Shown: positions 9,472-62,409 of the stretch, in pieces
Position numbering within the stretch: the first letter of the stretch is position 1
Layout of the letters: every line of letters starts with the position of its first letter
Origin: an uncultured Actinomycetes bacterium
GTDB lineage: Bacteria; Actinomycetota; CADDZG01; JAHWKV01
DNA: 64,000 nt
Direction of reading: 5' to 3'
NCBI GenBank assembly: GCA_964501265.1
Contig: CAZCSK010000003.1
Location: 67,480-131,479, forward strand
The notes under the pieces: model-generated
Told to the model about the DNA's origin: nothing
The model's input: the letters and a program-made list of their open reading frames with translations, nothing else
Databases searched by the model: none
Made by a program: the position numbers and the translations under genes

Positions 9472-9473
9472 CG

Positions 9474-12686: not shown

Positions 12687-13544
12687 TTGAGCGATTCACC
12701 AGGGCAAACGCCTGCCCTTGTGGCTCGGGGCGTTGGCGTTTCCTTCGGCGGACTTCGAGCGCTCGACCACGTCGATCTCGATGTTGCCCCCGGCGAGATC
12801 GTCGGCATCATGGGCCCCAACGGCGCAGGCAAAACGACTCTGTTCGACTGCATTAGCGGCTTCATCCCCTCCGAGGGTCACGTCTGGATAGGGGGCCGCG
12901 AGATAACCAGCCTCCCGGCCCACGCACGCGCCGGAGCGGGACTGGGACGAAGCTTTCAGGACGCGAGGCTGTTTCACACGATGACAGTTCTTGAAACATT
13001 GCGGGTGGCATCGGAGCTAACGATGAAGCACGCCGGCGTCGTGTCGGCCCTGCTCGCCCTCCCATCCTCTCGCTCTGCCGAAGGGAGCGCGAGGAAGATT
13101 GCGCTCGAAATGGTCGACGTGATGGGCCTCGGCGCATTCCGTGACAAGTTGATCAAAGAATTGTCAACAGGGACACGGCGAATCGTCGACATTGCTTGCA
13201 TCTCCATCCAAGGTCCTGCAGTCGTGTTGCTCGATGAGCCCTCTTCGGGGATCGCACAGCGAGAGGCCGAGGCCCTGGCCCCGTTGCTCAGAAGACTTCG
13301 CGATCGCCTCGGTTGCGCCATGGTGCTCATCGAACACGACATGCCTCTTCTACTCGGCCTGGCCACCCGCGTCTATGCACTCGAAACGGGAAGGGTCATT
13401 GCGGTCGGCGCGCCGGACGCAGTCGTTCGTCATCCCGCCGTCGTACGCTCTTACCTCGGCGACGACCCTGCCGCGATTGGACGGTCGGGTGTCCTCGCCA
13501 AGAAAACAAAGACAGCGCGCGCCTCCCAGACGCGGGCCGGCTGA
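12687..13544 (+). CDS. HAAT-family ABC transporter ATP-binding protein (LivG-like)
   Basis: Walker A GIMGPNGAGKTTLFDCISGF, LivG-type; signature motif and Walker B present. Confidence 0.75.
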   Translation: MSDSPGQTPALVARGVGVSFGGLRALDHVDLDVAPGEIVGIMGPNGAGKTTLFDCISGFIPSEGHVWIGGREITSLPAHARAGAGLGRSFQDARLFHTMTVLETLRVASELTMKHAGVVSALLALPSSRSAEGSARKIALEMVDVMGLGAFRDKLIKELSTGTRRIVDIACISIQGPAVVLLDEPSSGIAQREAEALAPLLRRLRDRLGCAMVLIEHDMPLLLGLATRVYALETGRVIAVGAPDAVVRHPAVVRSYLGDDPAAIGRSGVLAKKTKTARASQTRAG

Positions 13545-13553: not shown

Positions 13554-15542
13554 TTGGACATCATTACGATCGGCCTGGTGTTCGGAATGGCGAATGCCCT
13601 TCTCGCGATGGGTCTGGTGCTCATTTACATGTCGAACCGAGTGATCAACCTTGCCCATGGGGAATTGGGAGCGTTCGCAGTGGCGATGATGCTGGCGCTC
13701 ACGAGGGCGGCTCGACTGAACTACTGGCTTGCCATTTTGATCAGCCTTGCATCGACTGCGGTTCTGGCGGCAATCATAGAACGTAGCATTCTTCGAAGGC
13801 TCTTCCGCAGTCCCCGCCTAATCGTCCTAATCGCAACGATTGGTATTGCGCAACTCATTATCGTGGCCCGCTTGATTCTGCCCAAGCCAACGGCGGGGGG
13901 CGAGAAAGCCTATTTGGTGGGATCGCAAGTCTTCCCGGTGCCTTTCTCCTTCCAGCCGATCGAGTTTGGAAGGGTCGTTCTGCAGTCCCAGCACTTCATC
14001 GCGCTCATCGTGGGGCCTCTCGTTGCCGGCGCCGTCCTTCTTTTTCTTCGCCATTCCTCGTACGGAATCGCGCTCCGCGCGGCGGCACAGAACATGCCGC
14101 GGGCGCGCCTGCTGGGGATCCCGGTCCTTAGAGTCTCGACCATGGCGTGGGTGATTGCTGGGGTCATGTCGGCGATTGCCGCGATACTGCTGGCCCCCCT
14201 CATCGGGTACTCCTCGACCGAAGCGATTGGGCTCCCCCTATTGATGAGGGGCCTGGCCGCCGCAATGGCCGCCCGAATGGAGTCCGTGGGGACCGCCTTC
14301 GGCGTCGGACTCGGGCTCGGGGTTCTGGATCAATTGGTCTTCTTTTGGACGGGAAAGGCCGACCTCACCGAGATCGTTTTATTCGCAGTGATCTTGATCA
14401 CGCTTCTCTCTCGAAAAGGCGTGCTGAAGCGAACGGTTTCCTCGGAGGAATCTTCCTGGGAAGTCGCCGAACCGATTCGACCTCTTCCTCTAGAAGTCGC
14501 CGCTCAAATGAAGTGGCGTCTGGCCGTCGCGGCGGGGGCAGTTGTTCTCGCCGGACTGACCTTGAGGGCACCGTTTTCGCTCGGCGACTCGTCGGTTTTC
14601 TTCCTTGCAACCGTGCTGCTATTGGCAGTGGTTGCCGTCTCGGCGACTGTACTGACCGGTTGGGCCGGTCAGATGTCACTCGGCCAATGGGCGCTCGCAG
14701 GGGTCGGAGGAGTTTTCGGAGCCAAACTCATCGTGAGTTTCGAGTTGCCCTATTGGGGAGCGTTCGTCCTGGCCGCCATCACGGGGGGCATAGTTGCTCT
14801 CATCATCGGCCTTCCGGCGCTTCGGTTGGAGGGAACGGCTCTTGCGGTCATTACGCTCGGCTTCGCGGTTGCAGCGGAGGGATGGCTCTTCAAGCAGCCC
14901 TGGTTCCAAGGATCTGGATTCCTGCTACGGCCAGCCTTCATGACCACACGGGTTTATTACTTCGTCTCACTTGGTTTGCTGCTCGCCACAATCCACGCAA
15001 CACGCGCCTTTCAGCGCACGCGCGTAGGACGCAACATGATTGCCATGCGCGACAATCCCCTTCAGGCGTCGGCAATGGGGGTCCCCATCGTGCGCGCAAA
15101 GCTCACGGCCTTTGTTATGTCGGGAATGCTGGCCGCTGCGGCGGGGTTTCTTTGGTCGACCGGTATCGGATTGGCCGACAACAGCGTGTTTGGCCCGATA
15201 CGTTCACTCACGATCATCTCCGCAGTCGTAATCGGGGGGCTCGGCTCCATATCCGGCGCTGTTATCGGAGCGTTCTATTTGCAAGGGATTCCCTTTTTCG
15301 GCGCCATGATCTCTCCTCATTTGGCGCTACTCGCGACCGGATTGGGACTGCTGCTTCTCGTGATCCTGCTGCCCGGGGGATTGGCTCGTTTGGTTTTCGG
15401 CGCCCGCGACCTGCTGGCGCAATGGATCACCGGGATCGAAGTCAAACCTAAAGTGGTGCCTGTCTCGTCTGTCCTGGATGCGCTGGGCGGAGACTTTGCG
15501 CCGGCTGCGGAGGAAACCGTGACTCAGGCGGCACATCAGTGA
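13554..15542 (+). CDS. Fused LivH/LivM-type branched-chain-amino-acid-family ABC permease (two BPD_transp_2 domains)
   Basis: 662 aa, two tandem blocks of about 8 TM helices each with Liv-permease-like composition. Adjacent to LivG/LivF ATPases. Confidence 0.7.
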   Translation: MDIITIGLVFGMANALLAMGLVLIYMSNRVINLAHGELGAFAVAMMLALTRAARLNYWLAILISLASTAVLAAIIERSILRRLFRSPRLIVLIATIGIAQLIIVARLILPKPTAGGEKAYLVGSQVFPVPFSFQPIEFGRVVLQSQHFIALIVGPLVAGAVLLFLRHSSYGIALRAAAQNMPRARLLGIPVLRVSTMAWVIAGVMSAIAAILLAPLIGYSSTEAIGLPLLMRGLAAAMAARMESVGTAFGVGLGLGVLDQLVFFWTGKADLTEIVLFAVILITLLSRKGVLKRTVSSEESSWEVAEPIRPLPLEVAAQMKWRLAVAAGAVVLAGLTLRAPFSLGDSSVFFLATVLLLAVVAVSATVLTGWAGQMSLGQWALAGVGGVFGAKLIVSFELPYWGAFVLAAITGGIVALIIGLPALRLEGTALAVITLGFAVAAEGWLFKQPWFQGSGFLLRPAFMTTRVYYFVSLGLLLATIHATRAFQRTRVGRNMIAMRDNPLQASAMGVPIVRAKLTAFVMSGMLAAAAGFLWSTGIGLADNSVFGPIRSLTIISAVVIGGLGSISGAVIGAFYLQGIPFFGAMISPHLALLATGLGLLLLVILLPGGLARLVFGARDLLAQWITGIEVKPKVVPVSSVLDALGGDFAPAAEETVTQAAHQ

Positions 15543-17611
15543 GCACTCCTCCAATCGTTCCAGTTCTAGGCTGGGGGCCGCGCGCGCTCGCTGCCCGGTT
15601 CTCCAGATATCTAGCCGGCGAGGCAACCTTCCCAATCGTCGTCCTGTTCTTGCTGAATGCCGTCGACGAGTTCGACAGCAAAACTTTCGAAGTTGCCAGT
15701 CCCGAGATCGCCAAGCACTTCGGCGTTGGGGTCGGGACGTTCGGACTGATCACCGTCATAGCGATCCTCTTGGTCCCGTTTGTTAGTGTTCCTGTGGCCT
15801 ATTTGTCGGACCGCCGCAAACGCATGCCTTTCGCGATCGCCGGCGCCGCGGCCTGGGGCGCTTTCTCGCTGGCCAGCGGGTTTGCGCCCACGCTTTTCAT
15901 ACTGATGGCTGCGCGCGTCGGATCGGGTTTCGGCAAGGTTGTTAACGAACCTGTCCACAGCGCTCTCATCGCTGATTTCTATTCTCCGCGTTCTCGGGTA
16001 AAAGCATTTGGCATTCACAGCCTCGCGAATCCCGCTGGCGGGGCCATAGCGGCAGTTCTTACGGGCTTCATCGCCGAAGCCTTCGGGTGGCGCGCGCCGT
16101 TCTTCGTGCTGACGATCCCCACGGTCATAGCGTTGTTCGTCGGTTCACGCCTCAAGGAGCCGGAGCGAGGTCGATTTGAAAAACTCGAAACACCCAAAGC
16201 GCCCCCCTTCATGCCGACTGCGCGCCGTCTATGGGCAGTGCGATCTCTGCGTTTTCAATGGATAGGTCTTGCGTTCACAAGCGGATCGGTGCTCGGCGTG
16301 GGAATACTGATCCCCTTCTTTCTTGAAGAAGAGTTCGGCGTCGGGCTCGGGCTACGCGGTGTGCTAATCGGGATCGGCACCTTGCTCTCGGCGATTGGAG
16401 TGTTGGTGGGTACAGCATTCGCGCAAAAGGTGATCATCGAGCGTCCAAGCAGCGGCCTCCGCTTGCTTTGCTGGACGGCGATCGTGGCGGCGATTTCGCT
16501 CCTCGGGGTTGCTGTGTCTCCGACTCTTACCTTGGTGATGTTCTTCATATGGATAGTGATGGTGGTGTTTGCCTTCGTCAACCCGGGTCTGCGCGCGATC
16601 ACAGCGATGGTGGCGCCCCCCGAAATTCGGGCCTCGGCCTTCGCGCTCGGCGGGCTGGTTGCCCTTTCCGGCGCGGGGTTCGCACTCGGAGGGTTTGCGA
16701 TCGGCGAAGCATTCTCAGTTCGCTGGTCTCTCGCGGTGATGTCTCCCATCTTCTTCCGCGGTGTTCTCTACTTCTTCAAGGCTGCGAAGTATCTCGACGA
16801 CGATGTCGAACGGCTCGACCCAGCCCATGTAGATAAGGCACGCGGCACCGCCGGAGACTCGGGACCCGTGCTGCTTGAAGTGTCGAGGCTGACGGTCTCC
16901 TACGACGGAGTGCAGGTTCTTTTCGGCGTCGACATGGAGATACGCCGCGGCGAGATGGTTGCTCTGCTTGGGACCAACGGCGCGGGTAAATCGACCGTTC
17001 TAAATGCGATCTCAGGGATCGTTGAGCCCGACGGAGGTAACGTCTGGTTCGAGGGCGAAGCCGTCACCGGAGAGGCCCCCGAACGCACCGCCGCGCGCGG
17101 GATTATCCAGGTGCCCGGAGGCCGGGGGATCTTCCCTGGGCTCACCGTCGAAGAGAACCTCAGGATGGGAAGCTTTCTCATCCGGCGCGACGGCGCCCTG
17201 GTCACGGAACGGATGAATGAAGTCCTCGACTTGTTCCCTCGCCTTGCCGAGAGGATGCAGCAGCGGGCGGGGCTGCTCTCGGGCGGAGAGCGACAGATGC
17301 TCACGCTGGCCCAATCGTTCGTGCTTCACCCCAAGCTTCTTCTCATCGATGAACTCTCGCTGGGACTCGCGCCGGCGCTCATACAGGAGCTGCTCGTGGC
17401 GGTTCGGCGGATGAACGAATCCGGTATCACGATCGTCCTTGTCGAACAGTCGGTGAACCTCGCGCTGACGCTGGCCGACCGCGCATATTTCATGGAAAAA
17501 GGCGAAGTGCGTTTCTCTGGCCCAACCGCGGGGCTCTTTGAAAGAGACGATCTCCTGAGGTCCGTTTTCCTTGAGGGGGCGAGCGCGGTGAGCAAAGCAA
17601 AGAAGACCTAG
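15539..17611 (+). CDS. Fusion protein: N-terminal MFS-like 12-TM domain + C-terminal LivF-type ABC ATPase
   Basis: N-terminal ~420 aa hydrophobic, with MFS motif-A-like LSDRRKRMPF and R-x-x-x-G-x-G (ARVGSGFGK). C-terminal Walker A GTNGAGKST (LivF-type), LSGGERQ signature and Walker B LLLIDE. Confidence 0.65.
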   Translation: MSTPPIVPVLGWGPRALAARFSRYLAGEATFPIVVLFLLNAVDEFDSKTFEVASPEIAKHFGVGVGTFGLITVIAILLVPFVSVPVAYLSDRRKRMPFAIAGAAAWGAFSLASGFAPTLFILMAARVGSGFGKVVNEPVHSALIADFYSPRSRVKAFGIHSLANPAGGAIAAVLTGFIAEAFGWRAPFFVLTIPTVIALFVGSRLKEPERGRFEKLETPKAPPFMPTARRLWAVRSLRFQWIGLAFTSGSVLGVGILIPFFLEEEFGVGLGLRGVLIGIGTLLSAIGVLVGTAFAQKVIIERPSSGLRLLCWTAIVAAISLLGVAVSPTLTLVMFFIWIVMVVFAFVNPGLRAITAMVAPPEIRASAFALGGLVALSGAGFALGGFAIGEAFSVRWSLAVMSPIFFRGVLYFFKAAKYLDDDVERLDPAHVDKARGTAGDSGPVLLEVSRLTVSYDGVQVLFGVDMEIRRGEMVALLGTNGAGKSTVLNAISGIVEPDGGNVWFEGEAVTGEAPERTAARGIIQVPGGRGIFPGLTVEENLRMGSFLIRRDGALVTERMNEVLDLFPRLAERMQQRAGLLSGGERQMLTLAQSFVLHPKLLLIDELSLGLAPALIQELLVAVRRMNESGITIVLVEQSVNLALTLADRAYFMEKGEVRFSGPTAGLFERDDLLRSVFLEGASAVSKAKKT

Positions 17612-21905: not shown

Positions 21906-21929
21906 GGATATTTTGTGGCTCGGGCGTTG

Positions 21930-23519
21930 CTATTTGAACCCGAGGTCTTCGCATCCGCCGTTGTTCGGTCCGAAGACTCGGTAATAGCAAGGGTATTTGG
22001 GGAAGAGGTACCTCGCTTCGGCCGTCGACCAGTCGGCCACTGTCCAGTGGCTGAAGCCCCGGGTCTTGTAGGGCCCGCCCGCCGGGAACTTGTACTCCAT
22101 TGGCACGTGCGCGTCCCAGAAGAAATCGTTGCGGATCATATCGGCACCGAGCATGAATGAGTTGGCGTCGAGCACACCGGTCCTCTTGTAGCCTCGGTTC
22201 ATGATTTCCGAGGTCGAAAGGATTCCCGTGCACGCAATGAGAACCGCCGCCGACTCGCTCTGTCCGTCATTCCCGTTGTAGGACTCGTAGATCTTCTTGC
22301 AGTTTTGAAACTTGGGGTGACCGGGAACCCTTGTCGATAGTCCGATGGCGTTCTCCCATTGCACCTGATCCATTAGCTTCGAAATATTGTCGTCGTCGCT
22401 TAGAGCGGTGCGGGAAGTCCAAGTCCACTTTGGAAAATAATTGTTCTGTGTGGCGGCATCGGTCATAAAAATGAGCCCGATGGTGTTGCCGGCCATGAAC
22501 CAAACCTGCCCGCACCCTTTGTTCTTGGCACGGACGACGATGGTGTTGGACTGCGATTGCGCGGTTTCGAGTTTGTCCTCGAAAACCATGATGTCCCCAA
22601 ATTCCAGACCGTACTTTTTCATCTTGCTTACGAGGATTTGCTGGGGAATGTCCCAGTTGCCGCTGGCTCCGGTTTCTATCCGGATGAGGCACGGCAGGTT
22701 GCCGGGAGCAACTTGGCTTACATATTTGGTAGTACCAGTTTGCAGGTAATTCTTCCCGAAGCTCGCCCACGCCTCCAGCGTTGGGTCGGCGGGGGCGAAA
22801 AGCGCAAGCCCGTTTGGCCCAGACTTTTCGAGCGAAGCGGGGTCGTCGCGCCCGCCCCAAACCGGGACCTTGCGCGAGATGACGTAATCGGATGCGATGT
22901 CGAGACCAGGGATGGCAAGGAAAACTTTCTCTTCGTCGGCCATCTTGATTGCTGCAGCGACGTTTTTTTCAGGGCAGCCCGAACCTCCGTCATCGAAAAT
23001 CATGGCCTTATAGGTTCGGCCCCCGGCAACCCCTCCTTTGTCGTTCACATAACGCGCGAACGTTTCGATTGCCTTTTTTATGTCTCCGGCCTGATTGGCG
23101 AACATCGCCTCGAGAACTCCTGCGTCGCCACAGGCAGCCACGTTGTAAGAGATCCCCACTTTGACTTCCTTCGCAGTGATCCCTTGAGTTTTTAGTCCGA
23201 AGTCCAGCGCCCCGCCGCTCGTGGTTCCCCCACCCGTACCCGCGCCCCCGATTCTCTTAACGGTAGGACCGCCGGATACTCCCGGGATGGGCGAGCCATC
23301 AATAGTGCCTGGCGCCGTGGCCTCCCCTAGCGAAGGATCGGACGCGTTGCCTTGTTCACCCGTGGCGTTTGGGCCGGTAGTGATCTTGTCGGAATTCGGT
23401 CCGCGTGCCCCAAAGGACGCTATCGCGGTGATGATCAGCACCCCCGAGGCGATCAAGAGGCCTCGAACCCATGCTTGCGTTTTGAGGAGCTCGTTGAACG
23501 CTTTGAGTCGACCCATCAT
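21930..23519 (-). CDS. Liv-type (Peripla_BP_6) ABC substrate-binding protein with N-terminal membrane anchor
   Basis: N-terminal TM/signal segment, G/T-rich linker, then ITAKEVKVGISY... typical of LivK/amide-urea family SBPs. 529 aa. Confidence 0.6.
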   Translation of the reverse strand: MMGRLKAFNELLKTQAWVRGLLIASGVLIITAIASFGARGPNSDKITTGPNATGEQGNASDPSLGEATAPGTIDGSPIPGVSGGPTVKRIGGAGTGGGTTSGGALDFGLKTQGITAKEVKVGISYNVAACGDAGVLEAMFANQAGDIKKAIETFARYVNDKGGVAGGRTYKAMIFDDGGSGCPEKNVAAAIKMADEEKVFLAIPGLDIASDYVISRKVPVWGGRDDPASLEKSGPNGLALFAPADPTLEAWASFGKNYLQTGTTKYVSQVAPGNLPCLIRIETGASGNWDIPQQILVSKMKKYGLEFGDIMVFEDKLETAQSQSNTIVVRAKNKGCGQVWFMAGNTIGLIFMTDAATQNNYFPKWTWTSRTALSDDDNISKLMDQVQWENAIGLSTRVPGHPKFQNCKKIYESYNGNDGQSESAAVLIACTGILSTSEIMNRGYKRTGVLDANSFMLGADMIRNDFFWDAHVPMEYKFPAGGPYKTRGFSHWTVADWSTAEARYLFPKYPCYYRVFGPNNGGCEDLGFK

Positions 23520-51795: not shown

Positions 51796-52815
51796 CTATG
51801 CCGCGGGAGTAACCGTTGAGGTCGAGATTTCGGATGTCTCCTGCGGCGGGGGTGCTGCGTCCGGTGCGGCTTGCGGGCCGAAGATTCCTCGGAGCGGCGC
51901 GGTGAGGGCCGCCGCTGGCAGGACGATCGCCAGCTTCGTATCGCCAAGACGCGAAATTTCAAAGAACATCGTTCGAGGACGGATCGGCTCGCGGGCTTGC
52001 CCCGCTCGAACTGCCGCAAGCAACTGCAACGGATAGCGCGGGCCGTCTCCACGCGCGGCCCGCTTAAAATCCTTGTGAGTCTCGAAGTCAATCTCCTCAG
52101 CAACTTTGATGACCTTGCCGTCAAGCACATAGAAAGACATCTTTCGAAAATGGGCTATTCCCGGCAGTGAGCCGGACGAGCCGCGAGTGCTTCGGGCAGG
52201 CAGGTTGGGAGGTATTACATCAAAGCGCTTGACCCCCGCGTCCTCATTGGGGTGCTCAAAGGGGTCTTCTCTGGGGAAATAATCGGGGCTGTCCTTGTTG
52301 AATTCCACAACACCGGCTGCTTCGGAAATTGACCGCCGAAAATACTGGAATGCGTAGATGGAATCGAGGATGAAATTCTGCCCCACCTGGATAACGCCGC
52401 TGCGGTCGCGGGGTGCGAGCACCGGGGGGGCCCCAGCCGGATCAGAGACCCATTGTCCCGCCTGCAGGGTCTGGGCGACTTTCTTGCTTCCGGCCACCTC
52501 GAGACCCTGAGCTGAGGGCACTTTCGACACATCGGCCACCCGAATGGCTATCGTGTCGTCGGATATGTATTCCTCGAACACTTCCGTATCGTTGAACGTC
52601 AGAAGGGCTCGAGCCCGAAGGTCGTCTTCAACTTCGCCAGTCACTACGGCTTTGCCGGCAGGAGTATCGTCGGTGTAGCTGAAAGCGTGTGGGAGACCCT
52701 CCGATGCCGCCAGAAACTTGAGCACCTTCTCTTCCGCTGTTTCGTCTCTGCTACCGCAGGCAGCGCCAAGCACAATGAGAGTCAGGCAAACTAAAACTGC
52801 AACGAGGCGGCGCAT
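51796..52815 (-). CDS. Probable lipoprotein, unknown function (339 aa)
   Basis: MRRLVAVLVCLTLIVLGAACGS signal + Cys. Start trimmed from 52914 to 52815. Confidence 0.45.
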   Translation of the reverse strand: MRRLVAVLVCLTLIVLGAACGSRDETAEEKVLKFLAASEGLPHAFSYTDDTPAGKAVVTGEVEDDLRARALLTFNDTEVFEEYISDDTIAIRVADVSKVPSAQGLEVAGSKKVAQTLQAGQWVSDPAGAPPVLAPRDRSGVIQVGQNFILDSIYAFQYFRRSISEAAGVVEFNKDSPDYFPREDPFEHPNEDAGVKRFDVIPPNLPARSTRGSSGSLPGIAHFRKMSFYVLDGKVIKVAEEIDFETHKDFKRAARGDGPRYPLQLLAAVRAGQAREPIRPRTMFFEISRLGDTKLAIVLPAAALTAPLRGIFGPQAAPDAAPPPQETSEISTSTVTPAA

Positions 52816-53321
52816 TATTGCAGTTCCAGGGCCACTACTTTGCGCAACAAAGTCCGCGGAAATTCGTAGTCCTGGTGGATGGACAGAATGAACATTCCTC
52901 TGCCGCGAAACCACACAAAGATGTTTTGCTTGTTGCCAGCGGTGGAACTCACGCTTGTGTCCCCCACGCGAAGCTGCGACGGCGTTGTGCCGCCCAGCAG
53001 CGCTGCGATCGATTTGCGGAATCCTTCGCTCTGGGGCCGAGCGAATCTAGAAAGACGGCTCACTTGAAGAGTTGCCCGCAATAGTTCGTCATCGCGCATC
53101 GAGAAAAGCCCGTTTGAGTCGACATATGACTGTTTGATTCCAACCGCTTCCTTTCTGATGTCCTCCGGCTGCACAACAAGGCCCAGAATCTGCTTGGGAA
53201 TCCGAATACCCGATCCTTCGACGAACCCAGCACCGGTGTCAGCCGCCTTCGAGCATCCGGCGGCAACAAGCAATGCGGCACAGGCGAGGGCGACGGCGAT
53301 ACGCGCCGTTGTCTTCCTCAT
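52815..53321 (-). CDS. Probable lipoprotein, unknown function (168 aa)
   Basis: MRKTTARIAVALACAALLVAAGCS signal + Cys. ATGA overlap with the upstream gene. Start trimmed from 53405. Confidence 0.45.
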   Translation of the reverse strand: MRKTTARIAVALACAALLVAAGCSKAADTGAGFVEGSGIRIPKQILGLVVQPEDIRKEAVGIKQSYVDSNGLFSMRDDELLRATLQVSRLSRFARPQSEGFRKSIAALLGGTTPSQLRVGDTSVSSTAGNKQNIFVWFRGRGMFILSIHQDYEFPRTLLRKVVALELQ

Positions 53322-53845
53322 TGAACGGTCAGTTTGGCCCGGATAAAGCCCGCGGCTCGGTCGGTGATTTCCCAGGTTCCGGTTTGTCCAAATGTCTGAG
53401 ACCAAACCGCCCCCGGTTTCATCGGCCCCGAGTCGAAAGCGCCCGAAGCGGTGAAACTGCGGATCGGGCGGCCATCAGTGCGGTCCTCGTTTTTCACCCG
53501 CAGAGTAAATCCCACCGGCATCGTAAAGTCCTGGCCAAGTTCTTTGTTGGGCCCGAACGCGTAGAAGGGACTTTCCTCGACCAGGAAGACGTCAAAGAAC
53601 TTTTCGTCTGGCGCTTTCGTGGGTGCTACTGTCGCGGCTGTTGGCGATGGATTGCCGACACCCAGCTTGTCAGTTGGCTGCGGTGAGGGCTCAGGCGACT
53701 TGCACTCGCCAAGCCGGCACGCAGGAGTTGCATCACCGATCTTGTCCAGATCGATGTCGCCCCCGATGCTGTTGGGTTTTCCGCACGCTGCCCCTATCAT
53801 CGCCAAACAAGCAACTAACACTGTCCATCGCTTCATACTTCTCAT
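53318..53845 (-). CDS. Probable lipoprotein, unknown function (175 aa), beta-rich C-terminal domain
   Basis: MRSMKRWTVLVACLAMIGAACGK signal + Cys. 4-nt overlap with the upstream ABC fusion gene. Confidence 0.45.
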   Translation of the reverse strand: MRSMKRWTVLVACLAMIGAACGKPNSIGGDIDLDKIGDATPACRLGECKSPEPSPQPTDKLGVGNPSPTAATVAPTKAPDEKFFDVFLVEESPFYAFGPNKELGQDFTMPVGFTLRVKNEDRTDGRPIRSFTASGAFDSGPMKPGAVWSQTFGQTGTWEITDRAAGFIRAKLTVQ

Positions 53846-56835
53846 GTTAGGGCACCCGAGCGTTTAATGGCCTCCTCGGAGGTCCCCAGGTACGCCTGGA
53901 TCAGTCGCTCATCGTTCAATACCTCGGCTGGTTGACCGCGCATCAGCACCTTGCCTTGAATCATTGCGACTAGCTCGTCGGAGACGGCCGAGATCAGAGG
54001 CATATCGTGCTCGATTATCAGCATGCTGCACCCCGTCTCGAACCTCACCCGACGAAGGAGTGGCGCAAGCCCCTCCGACTCGGCCTGGGCGATTCCGGTT
54101 GAAGGCTCGTCAAGCAGAAGCACTTTGGGCTCGGCCGCGAGGACGCAGGCAAGGTCGGTGATTCGGCGCAAACCAGTGGAGAGTTCACGCACAAATTTGT
54201 CGCGATATCCCCCAAGGTCAAGCAGTTCGATAAGCCTGTCTGCCCGTAATCGGATGCGGCGCTCCGCCTGTCGCACCTGCGGTACCTGCAGCGCGGTCAG
54301 GGCCATATTGCGAACTTCCAACTTGGGCTCTAGAGCGACAAGTAGGTTTTCGTAAACCGTAAGAGCCGGAAACAGTCTGGCGTCCTGGAAGCGTCTCACC
54401 AAACGCAATTTTGCCCGCTCGTCCGGACGCAGCGAAGAGATGTCGTTCCCATCAAAGATGATCTGGCCCTCGTCGGCGAACTGAAATCCACAAATGATGT
54501 CGAACAAGGTGGTCTTGCCAGCTCCGTTGGGCCCTATCAGCCCGAGTGCTTCGCCCTCACGAAGATCGATACTCACATCCGTCAGAGCGTCGATCCCGCC
54601 GAAACTCTTGCTAATCGAGCGAACCTGCAAGACGGGCCGCGCTTCAGCCAGTTCGAACTGCCGCTGCTCGCGTGCAGACCGCATTGCGCCTGCGGGAGCG
54701 CCATCCGTAAGTGCTCCGGTTCCCTTGACGTAGACAGCGCGCAAGATGTCGGGGCGGCGCATCAGTTCCTCGGTTTTGCCGATGAACTTAACTTCACCCT
54801 TCTCCATGAAGATCGCATGTTCCGCCACTGTCAATGCGACATTGACCGATTGCTCGACGATGATGATCGCCGTTCCCTGGCGGTTGATCGCCCGAACGAC
54901 TTCGATGAGTTGGCCCACCATTGCTGGAGACAATCCCAACGACAGTTCATCGATCATCAATAACTTTGGCTTGGAAAGAAGGGCTTGAGCAAGTGAAAGC
55001 ATCTGTTGCTCTCCGCCCGAGAGCAGACCTGCAAGTTCACTTCCCCGCTCCTTGAGGATTGGGAAAAGCCGGTGAACTTCCTCCATACGCGTCTTCGCGT
55101 CGGCCTTGTCGCTGGACATCCAACCGCCGAGTTCCAGGTTCGCCTTCACCGTCAAACCAGGGAAAACGCCACGCCCTCCAGGCATGTGGATAACTCCTCG
55201 CTGTGTAATCTCGTGAGGAGGCATGTGTGTTATGTCGCGACCGTCGTGAACGATGGCACCTGAAGATGCCTCCTGGGTGCCGCTGATGGCGCGAAGCAGC
55301 GTGGACTTGCCTGCGCCGTTGGTACCGAGTAGGGCAATCGTCTGACCCTCTTCGACATCGAAGTCCACGCCGAAGAGCACCTGTACGTTGTCGTACGCCA
55401 CATCCACATCGCGGCAAACAAGCATCTTGCCTTGGCCCGACGCCTTGGCATAGCGCCATTCCGCCGATGCCGACTGACTGGCCTCAGCCGATCTGACATC
55501 TCTTGCGTACTTGCCTGCCGCACTCAGACTTATCAGGCTTGAAAGGACGATGAAAGGCGTCGCGAATCTAAGAGCTCCTTGAATACCAAAGCGCTGAATG
55601 ATTTCAGCCACGGCGAAAAATTGAATAACGTTCGAAGGGATGCCGGTTAGAACGAAAAGCGACCCACCCTGCGTCCTCACGTGCGCGGGAAGGATGTTCG
55701 CTCTCAATACTCCTCCGGCAGGGCCCAGGAGCGCGCCGCCGATGCCGAACACAATGCTGCTTGCGATAAGTACCGGAAGAGGTGGTGCCGCCGCCAAGAC
55801 CAAAAGAAAGAGTGCCGAGGCGACCCCAAGGAGCCCCGAATACACGAGTACCCGCTGGGGTCGGTAGCGGAGCAAGACATCGATAAGTCCGCCTGACAGG
55901 AAGCCGAACGGCAGCAAGACAAGGGTGATGGCAATGCTGATGTATGCGCGCTCCTTGATACCGAGCCCGTACTCGGCCCTAAGGAACTGCGCAAACAAGA
56001 GCGCATAAATGTAAGTGCCAACGTTGCCCGGAATCGCGGCAAGGAAGAACGTGCGAATGGTCCTGATCGCCCATATTGTTCTGAAGGCCTCGCCGAAGCT
56101 AACTGGCTCCTCAGGTTGGCGCGCCTCCTCCTCGGTGGCGCCGTTTGCTCTCCGCTCCATGTAGCCCCTAATTGGTTCCTTCAGTCCGATGAAAGCGAGT
56201 AGCGTGGCGGCAATCATCAGCGACCCCGAAACCACGAATGGTGACCGCCAACCGAATGTGGTGACCAGATAGACAATGAGCAACGAAGTGGTAACGCTAA
56301 TTGCGTCGAAGGTCACTCCGAATAGGGCGAAGACCTTTCCACGGGAGGTCGCGGGATAGTAGTCGGCGATAAGCGAGGAAATCGGAATTCCGCGAATCTG
56401 CGATCCTAGGTTGTCCCCCATTCGAGAAAGGGCAAGCGGAGTGAGGGAGTACGAGCGCGCTGTAAACAACGAGAAAATGCCACCCAGCGCCGTTCCAATG
56501 GCAACTAGTGGCACCCTCTTATGACGGTCTGCGTAATAACCCAAGCCCAGCGTAGCGAAAATCAAGACAAAACCTGTAAGGCTTGTGGCCTGCACAAGGC
56601 GACTGAGTGTGATTTCCAAATCTCGAATGATCTCAGGAGCGGCCGCACCGAAAATGCCGCCGTCGAAAGCGCTGACGATCCCGAGTAGGACAAAAACCAA
56701 GATCGGCTTCAGGCCGTAAGGAGTGTTTTTAAGTTCCTTGTAGTTCGCGGCCTCTTTGAGCGTGCGCTTGAAGCTGAGTTTGCCCACGGCAAGGGTGCTG
56801 GGCCGGCCCGCGGAAGCATCTTTGACTTCACTCAT
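53842..56835 (-). CDS. Triple fusion: MFS-like 12-TM domain + LivF-type NBD + LivG-type NBD
   Basis: 997 aa. N-terminal hydrophobic domain with MFS-like GYYADRHKRVPL. First NBD Walker A GTNGAGKST (LivF-like), second NBD GLIGPNGAGKTT (LivG-like); each has LSGG signature and Walker B. Confidence 0.65.
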   Translation of the reverse strand: MSEVKDASAGRPSTLAVGKLSFKRTLKEAANYKELKNTPYGLKPILVFVLLGIVSAFDGGIFGAAAPEIIRDLEITLSRLVQATSLTGFVLIFATLGLGYYADRHKRVPLVAIGTALGGIFSLFTARSYSLTPLALSRMGDNLGSQIRGIPISSLIADYYPATSRGKVFALFGVTFDAISVTTSLLIVYLVTTFGWRSPFVVSGSLMIAATLLAFIGLKEPIRGYMERRANGATEEEARQPEEPVSFGEAFRTIWAIRTIRTFFLAAIPGNVGTYIYALLFAQFLRAEYGLGIKERAYISIAITLVLLPFGFLSGGLIDVLLRYRPQRVLVYSGLLGVASALFLLVLAAAPPLPVLIASSIVFGIGGALLGPAGGVLRANILPAHVRTQGGSLFVLTGIPSNVIQFFAVAEIIQRFGIQGALRFATPFIVLSSLISLSAAGKYARDVRSAEASQSASAEWRYAKASGQGKMLVCRDVDVAYDNVQVLFGVDFDVEEGQTIALLGTNGAGKSTLLRAISGTQEASSGAIVHDGRDITHMPPHEITQRGVIHMPGGRGVFPGLTVKANLELGGWMSSDKADAKTRMEEVHRLFPILKERGSELAGLLSGGEQQMLSLAQALLSKPKLLMIDELSLGLSPAMVGQLIEVVRAINRQGTAIIIVEQSVNVALTVAEHAIFMEKGEVKFIGKTEELMRRPDILRAVYVKGTGALTDGAPAGAMRSAREQRQFELAEARPVLQVRSISKSFGGIDALTDVSIDLREGEALGLIGPNGAGKTTLFDIICGFQFADEGQIIFDGNDISSLRPDERAKLRLVRRFQDARLFPALTVYENLLVALEPKLEVRNMALTALQVPQVRQAERRIRLRADRLIELLDLGGYRDKFVRELSTGLRRITDLACVLAAEPKVLLLDEPSTGIAQAESEGLAPLLRRVRFETGCSMLIIEHDMPLISAVSDELVAMIQGKVLMRGQPAEVLNDERLIQAYLGTSEEAIKRSGALT

Positions 56836-56844: not shown

Positions 56845-59190
56845 TCACTCCTGTTCGGTCGTTGGCTCGGTGATGTCGACAAGGCCCGCAGACTCCTCGT
56901 CTTCGGCCTGGATGCTCTTGGCTGCCCCGCCGAAGGCTCGCTCTTCACTGTTCTTGCTCGGCCCGCCGCCCAACATCTTGCCGCGCTCGCCGTAAAGCCC
57001 AGAAATACCCTTATACCGCTGATGGACAGGCAAGAGGGCAAGTCCGGAGTTCGGAATCGTTTCCGCAAGCGGAATAAGCCGTCGGGCTAACGCCAGTGGG
57101 TCGTAGTCGGCAAACAGGCTCGGCACTACCAGTTGCCTTCTTTGAGCGATGATTCGCAGTATCCCGTCGCGAAGACCAAACAGAAGCGAAGCCAGGCCGC
57201 CGGGCGCGAAGTAAAGCAGGGCCAAGACGCCGACGCTACCAACCAGGAAGGGCAGAGAACCAGTCGTGGGCAAGAACTGGGTAAGCGCAAAATAGCCCGC
57301 TCCCAGCAAGGCGCCCGGAACCGAACCAACCCCTCCGACTACGGTGAAGAGGAATATCTGGAAGCCCAAGAATGGGTCAAAAGAGGACTCAGCGACAGCC
57401 CTTTGGTGAACCGCCAGGAGAACTCCGCAGAAACCGCAGAGCAGCCCGGAAAAAGCGAATGCTGCAAGTCGCGTCCTTACAAGATTGACGCCGAACGATT
57501 GAATATTGGCTTCATTCTCCCGAGCAGCGATCAGCACCCTGCCAACCCTACTGCGCCGAAGCACCGACACCAGCGCGATAGCCAACAGCAAACCGCTTAG
57601 AGCAAGGTAATACATGCTTCGCTCATCTTCGAAATCAATAAATTGAAACAAGCTCGGGCGATCGACGCGGTCGGGCAAAAGCCACCCGAAATATTCCTCC
57701 TTAAAGAGCGTCGCGTTGATGGCGAAAGCAAATGCGGTAGTAGTGACTGCCAAGAACAGGCCTTTGATTCGCAGGGCCGGGAAACCAACGAGAACCGCGA
57801 AGACAGCAGTCAGGATTGGAGCGAGGGGTAGTGCTACCCAGAAAGAATATTTCGAGGCAATGGCTCCGCCTATGACTGCCCCTACCGCAACAAACGCGAA
57901 TTGGCCAAGGCTCACCTGCCCGGCCCACCCCGTCAGTACGACCAACGACAGCGAAGTTATGGCAACAATCAGTAGATAGCCAGAAAGGTTCACTTGGCGG
58001 GGCGAGAGAACGAACGGAAGACCGACGAGGGCCAAGACTCCAACTGCAATTAGGGCCCGCCGCCACACCCGCACTCCACCAACTTCCAACATCTCCTTGG
58101 GGGTGGCTCGCTGCTCCTCGGTAGCCTTCCAAGCCGTCGTTTCGCCGGCCTCACTTCTAGTTACGCGACGGCGCTGGAACAGGAGCGCCCCAATGATCGC
58201 GAACAACATCCCAACCTCCAAGAGCGCCAAATGTTGTTCGTAACTCCACTTGACCGCCTCGCGAAGAACAGAAAGCCCGATTGCCGAGGCAATAGCAATC
58301 GGAAAGCTGTACATCCTGGCAATGACGGCCGCCGCAAGCGCCCCCAAAAGCACCTCGGGGGAAGAAATTCCTGAACTAAAGCTCCCCGAAACGCCGCCCG
58401 TAAGAATTACCCCAAGGCCCGAGAGCGCTCCCGCGATCGTCCATACCACCATCGAGAGCGTCCCAACGTTGATTCCTAAAAGGCGCGCCCGTTCCGCGTT
58501 CTCCGAGGAGGCACGAATGGCATACCCGAGCCGCGAGTACCGCAGAAACAGCACCAGCGCAATCATCGCGGCGACCGAAGCGAAGATGGCGAACAGATGA
58601 GGAAACCCGAAGCTCAGTCGGTTCGAACCAATTTGGAATTTGAAGTCGTTGAAAGGAAACGTCACAAGCACTTGCCCTTGGATTTGCTCCACCGTGCGGT
58701 CCGCGGGCGGTGGGAAGATGGGAAGCGTGGTCACGTATCCAATCGCTCCCCCGAGCACGCCGAGAGTCGCGATAGTCAGTACCGTAAGCACAAGCCGCGG
58801 GGCGTTGAAGAAGCGCCTGATAAGGGCGATCTCTATAAGGAAACCAAGGAATGCTGACACGATCACGCCGCCCAAAGCAGCCAAAAGGAATGGCCATTTA
58901 TTGAGAACGGCGAGATTGTAGGTAAATACACCCCCAGCGGCGCCAAGGGCGCCTTGGGAGAAATTGATGATACGGGTTGACCTGTAAATGAGAACGATCC
59001 CGACGGCAATCAAACCCGTAAGAAGTCCTGCAATCAAGCCCTGAAATAGGATCGCCAGGGGGGTTCCGTTCTCGGAACCGGTTCCAGGTAAGACTAGCTG
59101 GGTGATGACCAGAACACCGGCGCCAGCAGCTACTCCGATGACAATCGACCGAATCTTCTCGCTCTTGAGGCCCAGGGCGGCGGTAGCCAT
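56845..59190 (-). CDS. Fused LivH/LivM-type ABC permease (781 aa)
   Basis: Two tandem polytopic Liv-permease-like domains separated by a charged linker; paralogue of 13554-15542. Confidence 0.7.
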   Translation of the reverse strand: MATAALGLKSEKIRSIVIGVAAGAGVLVITQLVLPGTGSENGTPLAILFQGLIAGLLTGLIAVGIVLIYRSTRIINFSQGALGAAGGVFTYNLAVLNKWPFLLAALGGVIVSAFLGFLIEIALIRRFFNAPRLVLTVLTIATLGVLGGAIGYVTTLPIFPPPADRTVEQIQGQVLVTFPFNDFKFQIGSNRLSFGFPHLFAIFASVAAMIALVLFLRYSRLGYAIRASSENAERARLLGINVGTLSMVVWTIAGALSGLGVILTGGVSGSFSSGISSPEVLLGALAAAVIARMYSFPIAIASAIGLSVLREAVKWSYEQHLALLEVGMLFAIIGALLFQRRRVTRSEAGETTAWKATEEQRATPKEMLEVGGVRVWRRALIAVGVLALVGLPFVLSPRQVNLSGYLLIVAITSLSLVVLTGWAGQVSLGQFAFVAVGAVIGGAIASKYSFWVALPLAPILTAVFAVLVGFPALRIKGLFLAVTTTAFAFAINATLFKEEYFGWLLPDRVDRPSLFQFIDFEDERSMYYLALSGLLLAIALVSVLRRSRVGRVLIAARENEANIQSFGVNLVRTRLAAFAFSGLLCGFCGVLLAVHQRAVAESSFDPFLGFQIFLFTVVGGVGSVPGALLGAGYFALTQFLPTTGSLPFLVGSVGVLALLYFAPGGLASLLFGLRDGILRIIAQRRQLVVPSLFADYDPLALARRLIPLAETIPNSGLALLPVHQRYKGISGLYGERGKMLGGGPSKNSEERAFGGAAKSIQAEDEESAGLVDITEPTTEQE

Positions 59191-60173
59191 CAGGACCTAA
59201 AGTATTCGGGTAGAGGAGCGAAGATATTCAGCGCGCCAATGTTTTGGGTTGTTGTGAGTCTGGCGCTGGACTCAAAAACGTTCTCGAATGCGATGTACCC
59301 ACCAAATTGAGTTGCCACGGAGTAGTTGTAATCGATTGAATAGCTTGTCCCGCTGGGAGCCGTGTATTGCTGATCACCGTCCACGAACCAGCTGTCTATC
59401 ACGACGCCGCACACATCCACCCGCTTGCGACCTGTGACTGTGCCCGTCTGCCTTAGCACTGCCAGCGACCCGCCATCTACTCCCGCATTGTTGTCGCCCA
59501 GGGTTAGGCCGGCTCGCACTGGCAGAGGGAGAATCTTAATGGATGGCTCAGGCGTGAAGGTTGTAGGGGTCCTGTCGTCAAGGCTTGAGTACTCACTGAT
59601 TCTGGTGAGAAATATTCCGTCGGCGCTCCCCCCATCCTGAACGATTTCAAAGTCCTGAACTATGACCCTGAACTGTCCTCCACGAACTCGGAATTCGCCC
59701 ACCCAGAATCTGGAGCCAGTAGCCGTTACTTGCCGGATTCCACCGATTCCCTTGCCGCTGTCGGTGGTGCTGGTCTGAGTCACCCCTTGAGCATTGGTGG
59801 TCGTAACCGTTGCTCGCCATCGATACAGGCCCTCCTTTGGCAAACCCTTGACCGAGGTGGAGGCCTCCTCTTCGGGAAAGGTCTGATCTGAAGCTTTGGG
59901 GCAAGACTCCTGAGGGGGTTGCGGGGGCTTCGTCACAACGGCCTTAGTGGTTGGACTAGGACTCGGCTTGCTTGCCTCCTGCACTTCAAACTCCCCGAAA
60001 CTCGGAGGAGCCACCGGCTCAGGAAGCGGGGGCACTCCGAAGACGAGACCGGCAGTGACGGCCTTCACCGCAACTCCCGATGGCGGAATCTTAAGGCACG
60101 CCGACAAGGCGAAGATCACAGACGTCAAAAGAAGGGCGGATGCCCGACGGCTACGCAGCTTTGCGCGAGACAA
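59190..60173 (-). CDS. Lipoprotein, unknown function (327 aa); not a recognisable Peripla_BP_6 SBP
   Basis: Canonical lipobox FALSAC after a basic N-terminus. Pro-rich linker then beta-rich domain. Overlaps the TgpA-like gene 3' end by 23 nt. Confidence 0.45.
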   Translation of the reverse strand: MSRAKLRSRRASALLLTSVIFALSACLKIPPSGVAVKAVTAGLVFGVPPLPEPVAPPSFGEFEVQEASKPSPSPTTKAVVTKPPQPPQESCPKASDQTFPEEEASTSVKGLPKEGLYRWRATVTTTNAQGVTQTSTTDSGKGIGGIRQVTATGSRFWVGEFRVRGGQFRVIVQDFEIVQDGGSADGIFLTRISEYSSLDDRTPTTFTPEPSIKILPLPVRAGLTLGDNNAGVDGGSLAVLRQTGTVTGRKRVDVCGVVIDSWFVDGDQQYTAPSGTSYSIDYNYSVATQFGGYIAFENVFESSARLTTTQNIGALNIFAPLPEYFRS

Positions 60174-62409
60174 CTTTAAGCTCCCTTCTCGACGGTGCGT
60201 TCAGCGTAGGGGCGTAGGGATGACGCAAGGACAATTTGGAAATTATTGCAACGGCTCTGAGGGTAACGGTGTGGGCTTGGCCCATCCGCCGTCTGAGGGC
60301 ACGGGAGAGTTCTTCCGCTGCAGCCGCATCCTCGACAGTGACCTGTTCCTGCAGATCTCCCCACAGAGTTCGAGTTACCAACCATGCGAGTTCAGTGTGC
60401 TCGTCGTCTGGAATCACGCGGTCCAAGAACATGAGCGGCGTATCTCCCTGATACCGATATCCAAAGTCTGTTGCGAGATCTCGAAATTCGGCATATGCAA
60501 GCCCGATCCTTTCCCTTACTCCACTCTGTAGCGCCCACGTGCGGCGCCGCGCCCGACGATAGGCCTTGACGACCCCGGGTATTGAGAAATAGATGATGGC
60601 GATCAGCGTGATAAATGGCAAGGCCACCAGAACTGCGTAGCGAATCTGCTCGAACAAGAATCGCTCGGGGTCGGTAGCCACGGGGAAAAACACCTTGACG
60701 GATATGTCATCGCTGGGAAGTAGGTTGCGATCCGCCTGGGTCTGGTCTGCGCCTATGTTGGTGGTCGACTGGCGTGGAGTTCCGATGATCGGCAGCCACT
60801 TGTAGCCAGTGAAGTAAACCTCAAGAAAAGAGGCGCCATGCTTGGGACGTACCTCGACCACGTCCCCCACTCGGTCACCCCCATCAAATCCATACCCCAT
60901 GCGCGAGGGCACTCCAGCCCACCTGGCAAGCATGGCCTGTCCAGCAACAATCTCGTATGGGGTGCCCTTGTGACTGCCCGCAAGCATGTCCTGCACCCGA
61001 TCCGGCGGCACTGCCTTCGGTCGACCCTGGCCGTCCGCTATAACGATGTCCAAGAACTCGTTGCGGACGAAGTCGAGTCGGTCCCACAATGGCTCTTTTG
61101 GCGCCTTCGCAAGAAGGGCCCTCACTGCTGGCGGAGGGTCGGGAATTTCAAGAAACTGACCGATGGCCTTTGGTGGATCTGCGTTCACATTTTGCAGTTC
61201 CTCAACGGTTGGGATGCGCGCGGCGGTAACTGTGTATTTCTGGCCCGCCTCAACCTGGCCTTCAGCGAGTCGGATAGTCCCGGCCCTTTTGTCGTAAGCA
61301 AGGAATGGGCCGTCGGCGACAACTCCAGCAAGGTTTGGAAGTCCGGGGAGAACGGCGCCCTCCATATCGACGATTTCGAAGGAAGCTTTGATGCCTTGGG
61401 ACAGTTCACTGTCGACGATGCCGGACGGGTCAACTTCTTCAATCTGGCTGTCCTTAAATGCCGGCAATCGCCACTCTTCGCCATCGTACACATCCAAGCC
61501 TCCCATGCGCCAGGGACCCGTGATCGACGACTTCGCGGTAAAGAGAACCCGGTCGCGAACGTTGTCGAGCGGGATGTATTTGGGCTTCTGGGCCTCCTGC
61601 GCGGGGTCGTATATGGGAGGCGGAAACAAGAAATCAGTGTTCAGAGCCAAGAACCCGAGCGCTCCAGTGATCCCGAGAATCAGAGGGACTGCTCGGGCCG
61701 CTCGCCGCAGTTCGTATCCTAAGGATCGCTGCTCCGCATCGCCGGTGATATCGACCCCGGAGAGAAGCCCAAGTCCCACCGCAAACATGGCGAAGGCAAT
61801 AAGACCGCTAACAATCTTGGCGTTGCCGGGAACGCTGATCGCTGCAATCATAACAACGGGCAAGGACGAGAGGATGCCAAGCGACGGCCGCCGGAGTTCA
61901 ATTGCCACCCAAGCCCCCGCGAACCCTAGTCCACCCATCAGCCAACCCACGATTGCGCGCCATCCCAAATCGAAGGGCACCGGCGGGCGTAGCACATCGC
62001 CCGACGTCACTGACCGCCTCACGAAGGCCCCGAGGTCGACTATGTCGTTGAACGATCCGGCCGGCAAACTGATGATGACTCCGGCCATGACAATCCCGCC
62101 AATGATTGCAAGATTGGAAAGGATCGCATTCTTTAGACGACGCGCGAGGATTGCTACTGCGATGCCTATAAGTCCGGCGATGGCTGCCCAGAACCTCGGT
62201 GTTATTCCCTTGAAAATGCCGCCCACCATGACGGCAGCGGCCAGGATTGGAAACGCCATGACTATCCCAAGGCGCAATGCCGGGATCGGAAATTCCTGTT
62301 TTTCTTCTTCGAAGACGAGGTCGCCCTCGGGACGCTCTTCCTCGAGATGCTCTAACGCGTGTTCCTCGAGTTCCTCCAGTTCGGAATGCGCTTCGCCGCG
62401 AAGCGCCAT
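60151..62409 (-). CDS. TgpA-like transglutaminase-domain membrane protein (DUF3488 N-terminal TMs + transglutaminase-like core + DUF4129-like C-terminus); catalytic Cys apparently absent
   Basis: About 6 N-terminal TM helices. Core region GTPYEIVAGQAMLARWAGVPSRMGYGFDGG aligns to TgpA G-x-C-E-x-F...G-I-P-A-R-x-V-x-G-Y but with no Cys. Follows DUF58 and MoxR genes as in the canonical triad. Confidence 0.6.
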   Translation of the reverse strand: MALRGEAHSELEELEEHALEHLEEERPEGDLVFEEEKQEFPIPALRLGIVMAFPILAAAVMVGGIFKGITPRFWAAIAGLIGIAVAILARRLKNAILSNLAIIGGIVMAGVIISLPAGSFNDIVDLGAFVRRSVTSGDVLRPPVPFDLGWRAIVGWLMGGLGFAGAWVAIELRRPSLGILSSLPVVMIAAISVPGNAKIVSGLIAFAMFAVGLGLLSGVDITGDAEQRSLGYELRRAARAVPLILGITGALGFLALNTDFLFPPPIYDPAQEAQKPKYIPLDNVRDRVLFTAKSSITGPWRMGGLDVYDGEEWRLPAFKDSQIEEVDPSGIVDSELSQGIKASFEIVDMEGAVLPGLPNLAGVVADGPFLAYDKRAGTIRLAEGQVEAGQKYTVTAARIPTVEELQNVNADPPKAIGQFLEIPDPPPAVRALLAKAPKEPLWDRLDFVRNEFLDIVIADGQGRPKAVPPDRVQDMLAGSHKGTPYEIVAGQAMLARWAGVPSRMGYGFDGGDRVGDVVEVRPKHGASFLEVYFTGYKWLPIIGTPRQSTTNIGADQTQADRNLLPSDDISVKVFFPVATDPERFLFEQIRYAVLVALPFITLIAIIYFSIPGVVKAYRRARRRTWALQSGVRERIGLAYAEFRDLATDFGYRYQGDTPLMFLDRVIPDDEHTELAWLVTRTLWGDLQEQVTVEDAAAAEELSRALRRRMGQAHTVTLRAVAIISKLSLRHPYAPTLNAPSRRELKVVSRKAA

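Follow-up and report, generated by a model that had tools for sequence, protein, structure and literature searches.

Two loci in the stretch of 64,000 nucleotides analysed here (the window; guanine-cytosine content ∼60%) each encode an ATP-binding cassette (ABC) transporter of the HAAT family in which the LivF-type nucleotide-binding domain (NBD) forms one polypeptide with a domain of the major facilitator superfamily (MFS). ABC and MFS proteins make up the two largest transporter superfamilies and are treated as alternatives, the first driven by ATP and the second by gradients. Here, a complete MFS carrier is covalently built into a complete ABC transporter, and this arrangement has been kept in two old paralogous lineages across Actinomycetota. 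Our results show that the fusion is genuine, old, widespread, and maintained by selection in Actinomycetota; in the uncultured members of this group, HAAT transporters into which an MFS carrier is built are both widespread and functionally unexplored. The genes and domains of the two transporters are given below by their positions in the window. The MFS domains are drawn from the Pfam MFS_1 match and the transmembrane (TM) helices of AlphaFold2 (AF2) models.

Locus A:
12687..13544, plus strand: LivG-type ABC ATPase subunit, 285 aa (ABC_tran, E 4e-28; best NCBIfam match LivG, 216 bits)
13554..15542, plus strand: fused LivH-LivM permease, 662 aa (two BPD_transp_2 stretches, E 3.5e-50)
15539..17611, plus strand: MFS-LivF fusion (fusion A), 690 aa (Pfam MFS_1 and ABC_tran; best NCBIfam match LivF)
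15629..16813, plus strand: MFS domain of fusion A, residues ∼31-425, 12 TM helices
16868..17575, plus strand: LivF-type NBD of fusion A, residues 444-679 (NCBIfam LivF 198 bits, UrtE 197 bits)

Locus B:
56845..59190, minus strand: fused LivH-LivM permease, 781 aa (two BPD_transp_2 stretches, E 1.8e-54)
53842..56835, minus strand: MFS-LivF-LivG triple fusion (fusion B), 997 aa (MFS_1 and two NBDs)
55525..56709, minus strand: MFS domain of fusion B, residues ∼43-437, 12 TM helices
54727..55428, minus strand: LivF-type NBD of fusion B, residues 470-703 (NCBIfam match; alignment to the NBD of fusion A)
53881..54639, minus strand: LivG-type NBD of fusion B, residues 733-985 (NCBIfam match; alignment to the LivG of locus A)

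These open reading frames (ORFs) and their fusion architectures lie where a preliminary description of the window had placed them. In both loci the gene for the fused permease directly precedes the fusion gene, and in locus A the last 4 nt of the permease gene are also the first of the fusion gene, which starts with GTG. Both loci have a complete ABC part: two BPD_transp_2 domains, in a permease with a LivH/UrtB-like N-terminal and a LivM/UrtC-like C-terminal half, are accompanied by a LivG-type and a LivF-type NBD. This is the composition of the HAAT importers (TC 3.A.1.4), such as LivJ/K-LivHMGF, BraCDEFG, and UrtABCDE, a family whose substrates are branched-chain or hydrophobic amino acids, urea, or amides. 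Unlike in those systems, LivH and LivM are fused here, LivF bears an MFS domain of 12 TM helices, and the fusion of locus B includes LivG as well. In fusion A, Pfam assigned residues 36-373 to MFS_1 (E 2.4e-40, 139 bits, cut-off 33.4) and residues 463-605 to ABC_tran; in fusion B, MFS_1 covered residues 49-345 (E 6e-27, 94.9 bits against the same cut-off of 33.4). Both MFS domains thus score above the MFS_1 gathering threshold, and both have 12 TM helices, motif A, and the Arg of motif B.

Since the scores of the single subunits against NCBIfam equivalog models were all far under the cut-offs, HAAT membership can be assigned at the family level only. The BCA_ABC_TP_C domain was above its cut-off of 25.5 bits in the LivG of locus A (32 bits) and below it in the LivG-type NBD of locus B (17.6 bits). 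Fusion B did exceed the NCBIfam cut-offs for UrtE (302 versus 286 bits) and LptB (270 versus 240 bits). We nevertheless rejected an identity as a urea or lipopolysaccharide transporter, because these scores sum two NBDs and the proteins with a single NBD as well as the permeases fall far below the cut-offs (for the permeases, 60-83 bits with urea-transporter models whose cut-offs are 250-296).

Fusions A and B, whose loci are 36.2 kb apart, align without a break from the MFS domain through the linker into the NBD (36% identity, 675 aa, E 5e-107). When taken alone, the MFS parts are 30% identical over 274 aa (E 2e-28; 25% in a multiple alignment), which is well above what shared hydrophobicity would give, and the LivF-type NBDs are 53% identical (E 4e-88); the permeases and the LivG parts share 35% and 47% identity, respectively. 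The preliminary description had called the second fusion independent of the first. This word has to be withdrawn, as homology over the whole length makes the two fusions paralogues of one architecture and not two separate inventions. Its wider claim, that two divergent copies speak for a conserved architecture and against an artefact, is borne out by the paralogy within the window together with the many homologues outside it.

The search with fusion A gave 2520 matches, and the best 120 protein clusters among them (56-100% identity) were all ∼660-700 aa long with both MFS_1 and ABC_tran. With fusion B there were 333 matches at E<1e-30; the best 120 (at least 55% identity) likewise all had MFS_1 and ABC_tran, 119 of them at ∼960-1090 aa with one 877-aa partial record, and the second, LivG-type NBD was found in 119 of the 120. 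The same fusion, which the preliminary description had proposed to seek in other genomes, is therefore present in many of them. Where the sources name an organism, it is almost always a member of the Actinomycetota (Acidimicrobiales, Nitriliruptorales, Mycobacteriales). For a comparison of gene order, one genome per species was scanned with two MFS-specific peptide patterns. This gave 41 loci, all from metagenome-assembled genomes (MAGs); 40 are labelled Actinomycetota or a lineage of it (Acidimicrobiales, Ilumatobacteraceae, Microthrixaceae, Mycobacteriales, Nitriliruptorales, and other Actinomycetota) and one is labelled Acidobacteria. Mapping the window proteins onto these loci assigned 25 of the 41 to the order LivG, LivH-LivM, MFS-LivF (type A) and 14 to the order LivH-LivM, MFS-LivF-LivG (type B).

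Two separate genes for an MFS protein and for LivF could also look fused through misassembly, through a frameshift, or through a stop codon that was overlooked, and two loci might be cited in favour of such an artefact. In one that was found separately (L042, 1780-4021), MFS and LivF are encoded by separate adjacent genes, 160 bp apart and in different frames; in another (L036, 5951-9992), a type A operon has several frameshifts in LivM and the MFS domain, so that it is either a pseudogene or carries long-read assembly errors. Against an artefact stand the uninterrupted reading frames in the window, the recurrence of the window's own gene, identical, in a separate Logan assembly, the same junction in hundreds of independently assembled orthologues, and AF2 models that are confident across the junction. 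We therefore give practically no credence to an artefactual origin.

The AF2 model of fusion A, built from a 21-sequence alignment, had a predicted local distance difference test score (pLDDT) of 85.6 and a predicted template modelling score (pTM) of 0.81. It contains 12 TM helices (from 31-52 to 394-425) with an amphipathic helix in the central loop, a short linker helix (428-435), and a normal NBD. The model of fusion B (pLDDT 79.4, pTM 0.61) has the same 12-TM layout, two NBDs, and a long linker helix (440-465). None of the specific MFS subfamilies in NCBIfam matched the MFS domain, all scores being far under the cut-offs. The closest solved structures by sequence were the bacterial Spinster homologue HnSpns (6e8j, E 3e-13), human Spns1, QacA, and SPNS2, and Foldseek with the MFS part concurred (6e9c, 9boi), so that Spinster (Spns) carriers are the best solved matches by sequence as well as by fold. 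The match to 6e8j was strong over the N-terminal six-helix half (E 4e-11) and weak over the C-terminal half (E 0.5).

In HnSpns, residues D41, D87, R91, R122, and D142 have been functionally analysed, Arg42 has been assigned to substrate binding, and Glu129 has been described as the protonation 'master switch' (PMC9440201). Alignment to 6e8j gave the following equivalents, in the numbering of fusion A:

HnSpns Asp41 (TM1): D46, invariant in both clades
HnSpns Arg42 (substrate binding): S47, lost
HnSpns Asp87 and Arg91 (motif A): D91 and R95, invariant
HnSpns Arg122 (motif B): R126, invariant
HnSpns Glu129 (protonation 'master switch'): K133 in fusion A and Ser in fusion B, lost
HnSpns Asp142 (TM4 end): D146, kept

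Across the A and B clades the invariant positions are D46 in TM1, D91, R92, and R95 in motif A, R126 in motif B, and R153; fusion B also carries an Asp aligned with D146 of fusion A. Shared with the Spns proteins are, accordingly, the TM1 Asp, the Asp and Arg of motif A, the motif B Arg, the TM4-end Asp, and in addition a 'D-F/Y-Y-x-P-x-x-R' stretch (PMC9440201). The overall identity is 18-21%, and since D46 and R126 are kept but the equivalents of R42 and E129 are lost, we regard the domain as Spns-like and would not file it as a Spns member. The motifs of the MFS domain are typical of alternating access and make it look competent, but coupling and the substrate site probably differ from those of the Spns proteins. 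A fusion of a Spns protein with an ABC ATPase is not known.

When the MFS part by itself served as the query of an exhaustive phmmer search, 141 cluster representatives were returned at E<1e-30, and these fell into three length classes: ∼420-470 aa without a Walker A motif, ∼680-715 aa with one, and ∼940-1030 aa with two. Three standalone relatives (30-37% identity) are autonomous MFS genes without ABC neighbours. As the nearest standalone relatives are autonomous, the fused domain descends from an ordinary secondary-carrier subfamily. In a crude, unresolved neighbour-joining tree of 100 MFS domains, the standalone, MFS-LivF, and MFS-LivF-LivG forms were interleaved; the 'standalone' entries of this tree may include fragments or split gene calls, and fusion and fission events cannot be counted from it.

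We tentatively favour the possibility that the MFS domain is a working secondary carrier tethered 1:1 to the ABC transporter. The C-terminus of the MFS domain would be cytoplasmic and joined by a flexible linker of 20-35 residues to LivF, which would dock under LivHM together with LivG. With the MFS end on the cytoplasmic side and linked to LivF, each ABC complex would hold one MFS carrier beside LivHM. Such a fixed ratio could bring two transport steps on related compounds to one site and under common regulation. In locus A, these might be the ATP-driven, binding-protein-dependent uptake of an amino-sugar-containing compound and the movement of an amphipathic partner or product by the MFS domain.

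Several observations weigh against this reading. Transport by the MFS domain is suggested by conserved motifs alone, and the loss of the Arg42 and Glu129 equivalents means that proton coupling may be altered or lost. The MFS part also diverges faster than the NBD, with 25-30% against 53% identity between A and B. Beside one type A operon there is a paralogous fused LivG-LivF protein (LivG first) with a LivHM permease and without an MFS domain (L024, 10016-13429, minus strand), the LivF part of which is 54% identical to the NBD of fusion A; as this relative from the same ABC clade shows, an MFS domain is dispensable for the ABC system. What the AF2 models were read for is the fold of each domain. 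The substrates carried are a guess from the gene neighbourhood. Finally, an altered Q-loop of the LivF-type NBD, described below, may change the communication between the NBD and the transmembrane domains.

Part of this evidence would also suit an MFS domain that does not transport but anchors the protein in the membrane, provides a scaffold for assembly, or senses a ligand as a 'transceptor' and so regulates the LivF/LivG ATPase. The loss of the substrate-binding and protonation residues, the faster divergence of the MFS part, and an ABC system that is otherwise self-sufficient and has MFS-less relatives all fit that role. Between clades of ∼25-30% identity, however, there is no variation in motif A, in the Arg of motif B, or in the Asp of TM1, and an inert anchor should lose them; moreover, as LivF already docks on LivHM, a full domain of 12 TM helices would be a costly way to anchor it. 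We therefore consider a non-transporting role somewhat unlikely.

A different arrangement would be a true hybrid pump, in which closure of LivF and LivG by ATP drives or gates the alternating access of the MFS domain, or in which the binding protein also feeds the MFS domain. In its favour, the covalent link between MFS domain and NBD has been kept for a long time, the loss of a Glu129-type proton switch fits a changed energy source, and the Q-loop of the fused NBD is altered. There is also a precedent in the ArsA-ArsB arsenite pump, where a secondary carrier is turned into an ATP-driven one by binding an ATPase. Both cases have a secondary-type membrane carrier that is physically associated with an ATPase; in contrast to the fusions, neither does ArsA belong to the ABC NBDs nor ArsB to the MFS, and their association is non-covalent, whereas the ATPase here already serves a full ABC permease. 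The LivF-type NBD itself is intact in fusion A with respect to Walker A (GTNGAGKST), the signature (LSGGERQ), and Walker B (LLLIDE), and its best structure match is the LivF-like protein 1ji0 of T. maritima (41% identity). Its Q-loop reads VPGGRG, with a Gly in place of the Glu of canonical LivF and 1ji0 (VPEGR). This Gly is present in 107 of 108 type A and in 109 of 120 type B proteins, and the LivG-type NBDs have a normal Q-loop.

We considered the Q-loop Gly as a signature of the fusion and rejected this, because it is also found in the MFS-less LivG-LivF protein of L024 (11966-13429); it is thus a trait of an actinobacterial subclade, and this counts against a hybrid pump. The stretch between the motif that follows TM12 and the first NBD strand spans 20-35 residues, is charged, and varies in length as well as in sequence, which makes it a poor mechanical transmitter. 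A post-TM12 motif, 'YLDDDVxRLDP', was likewise rejected as a fusion-specific interface, since standalone relatives have a similar motif. A variable, charged linker and a motif common to standalone members suggest a tether and not a rigid transmission element. In addition, the NBDs already have a full LivHM partner for coupling, and MFS and LivF occur as separate genes in the split version of L042. A hybrid pump is consequently distinctly improbable in our view.

HAAT transporters have a cognate LivJ/K-like binding protein of cluster B (Peripla_BP_6). No binding-protein gene is adjacent to locus A in the window. A candidate lies 4.3 kb away on the other strand:

21930..23519, minus strand: candidate substrate-binding protein, divergent LivJ/K-like, with an N-terminal membrane anchor followed by a Gly/Thr/Pro-rich linker

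Its match to Peripla_BP_6 (E 3.8e-7, 30.5 bits) was below the cut-off of 31.7. A profile of nine orthologues matched, in the PDB, only Leu/Ile/Val-binding proteins of the HAAT family (best E 1.5e-4). A homologue is found within 8 kb of 19 of the 25 type A loci, often as the next gene, and in L036 it is located inside the operon. We take this ORF as the probable binding protein that serves locus A. Such a putative partner, remotely LivJ/K-like and present also at most type B loci other than that of the window, would be a further likeness to the HAAT importers; with ∼530-600 aa and a family relationship that is barely recognisable, these proteins nevertheless differ from the known ones.

The genes around locus A (65-9540 and 17608-28158) resemble an island for the utilisation of amino sugars or glycoconjugates. 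The list below gives the number of type A loci, out of 25, that have a homologue of the window gene; a PfkB kinase is encoded there as well.

25631-26944: GH84 beta-N-acetylglucosaminidase, 14 loci
26941-28158: ROK-family regulator, 13 loci
23522-24466: ROK kinase, 13 loci
5105-6991, minus strand: 628-aa protein without a Pfam match, 13 loci, as syntenic as the ROK and GH84 genes
19658-20638: GFO/IDH/MocA oxidoreductase, 9 loci
8140-9540: ADP-ribosylglycohydrolase, 8 loci
24277-25638: amidohydrolase, 6 loci
17608-18531: alpha/beta hydrolase, 6 loci
20635-22233, minus strand: DegT aminotransferase, 5 loci
18528-19661: weak ceramidase-like protein, 5 loci
65-1039: SIS protein, 4 loci

This context, with amino-sugar genes and not branched-chain amino acid or urea genes beside the transporter, leads us to infer that the substrate of locus A is an amino-sugar-containing compound rather than a branched-chain amino acid. 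The 'Liv-type' label of the preliminary description consequently holds for the family and not for the substrate of locus A, whose conserved neighbours suggest amino-sugar conjugates. Two minor observations concern the same region. A 909-aa ORF (1036-3765, minus strand) gave marginal matches to DUF3604 and PHP and had no homologue in the related loci. The DegT ORF as listed overlaps the binding-protein ORF by ∼300 nt; as its Pfam match begins only at residue 140, the true start probably lies a good way into the listed ORF, after its GTG.

Locus B has a different set of partners. No HAAT binding protein was found for it in the window, using a hidden Markov model (HMM) of the type B-linked binding proteins, or near the three closest sampled relatives (L049-L051, all MAGs, with fusion proteins that are 61-70% identical). 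Instead, the transporter is accompanied by four predicted lipoproteins and two further genes:

62409..63770, minus strand: DUF58 protein, conserved upstream of TgpA
60151..62409, minus strand: TgpA-like transglutaminase membrane protein (TgpA_N and Transglut_core), in the same position in L049-L051
59190..60173, minus strand: predicted lipoprotein, 327 aa, lipobox LSAC; stop overlaps the permease start by 1 nt
53318..53845, minus strand: predicted lipoprotein, 175 aa; overlaps the stop of the fusion gene by 4 nt
52815..53321, minus strand: predicted lipoprotein, ∼168 aa; start at Met29 of ORF 52815-53405
51796..52815, minus strand: predicted lipoprotein, ∼339 aa; start at Met34 of ORF 51796-52914

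From the TgpA gene to the last lipoprotein gene in the window, each gene overlaps the next by 1-23 nt; the exception is the pair of permease and fusion genes, which are separated by 9 nt. The gene order in L049-L051 is MoxR, DUF58, TgpA-like transglutaminase, lipoprotein (∼340 aa), LivHM, MFS-LivF-LivG, then lipoproteins of 175, ∼168, and ∼340 aa and a protein of ∼155 aa. The genes of these clusters match window genes (51291-63770, minus strand) at 31-74% identity, and homologues of the lipoprotein at 59190-60173 occupy the same position with 31-40% identity. The MoxR ATPase that precedes DUF58 in the relatives would fall past the end of the window. All four lipoproteins have a lipobox, and none matched a Pfam family. 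The possibility that they are diverged binding proteins was rejected, given the absence of a Pfam match and of a BLAST match to type B binding proteins, and because the HMM of the latter matched only ORF 21930-23519 in the window. These partners suggest an envelope-related substrate for locus B rather than nutrient uptake.

On this evidence, locus B at least might export or flip a lipidic compound or a component of the envelope, which the Spinster-like MFS domain and the four lipoproteins would help to hand over. Four conserved, translationally coupled lipoproteins next to a TgpA/DUF58/MoxR module and the missing HAAT binding protein would agree with this, and so would the fact that the closest solved MFS relatives are transporters of lipids or lysolipids. 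An analogy is offered by LprG-Rv1410c (P55), a mycobacterial pair of a lipoprotein and an MFS protein. Like locus B, it is an actinobacterial operon in which an MFS carrier is paired with an extracytoplasmic lipoprotein; unlike locus B, it has no ABC component, and the four lipoproteins, without a Pfam match, show no sequence relationship to it. On the other hand, ABC systems of the BPD_transp_2 type are known as importers, the lipoproteins lack a recognisable fold or family, and the gene for a binding protein could lie beyond the window. In type B loci that are more distant (39-43% identity), a gene for a ∼600-aa protein in fact stands directly before or after the transporter, and this protein is remotely homologous to the candidate binding protein of locus A (HMM match to 21930-23519, 8e-21). 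Export by locus B thus seems unlikely to us, and for both loci we retain the tethered secondary carrier as the preferred reading.

A full-text literature search on MFS, ABC, LivF, and HAAT fusions yielded no description of an MFS-LivF fusion; TCDB and InterPro may list the architecture. The fusions provide a natural system for asking whether primary and secondary transporters cooperate physically, whether an NBD can gate an MFS protein, and what the benefit of a tethered carrier is. If ATP or the binding protein did drive or gate the MFS domain, the fusion would be the first case of an MFS carrier powered by ATP or dependent on a binding protein, and in type B it would work jointly with four new lipoproteins and the TgpA/DUF58/MoxR module in envelope transport. 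There is also a consequence for annotation. Automatic annotation already detects both domains, and the homologues are labelled 'MFS transporter', 'ATP-binding protein', or 'branched-chain amino acid transport system ATP-binding protein'. The labels that name an MFS transporter or a branched-chain amino acid ATPase hide the architecture, and the latter is probably wrong on the substrate.

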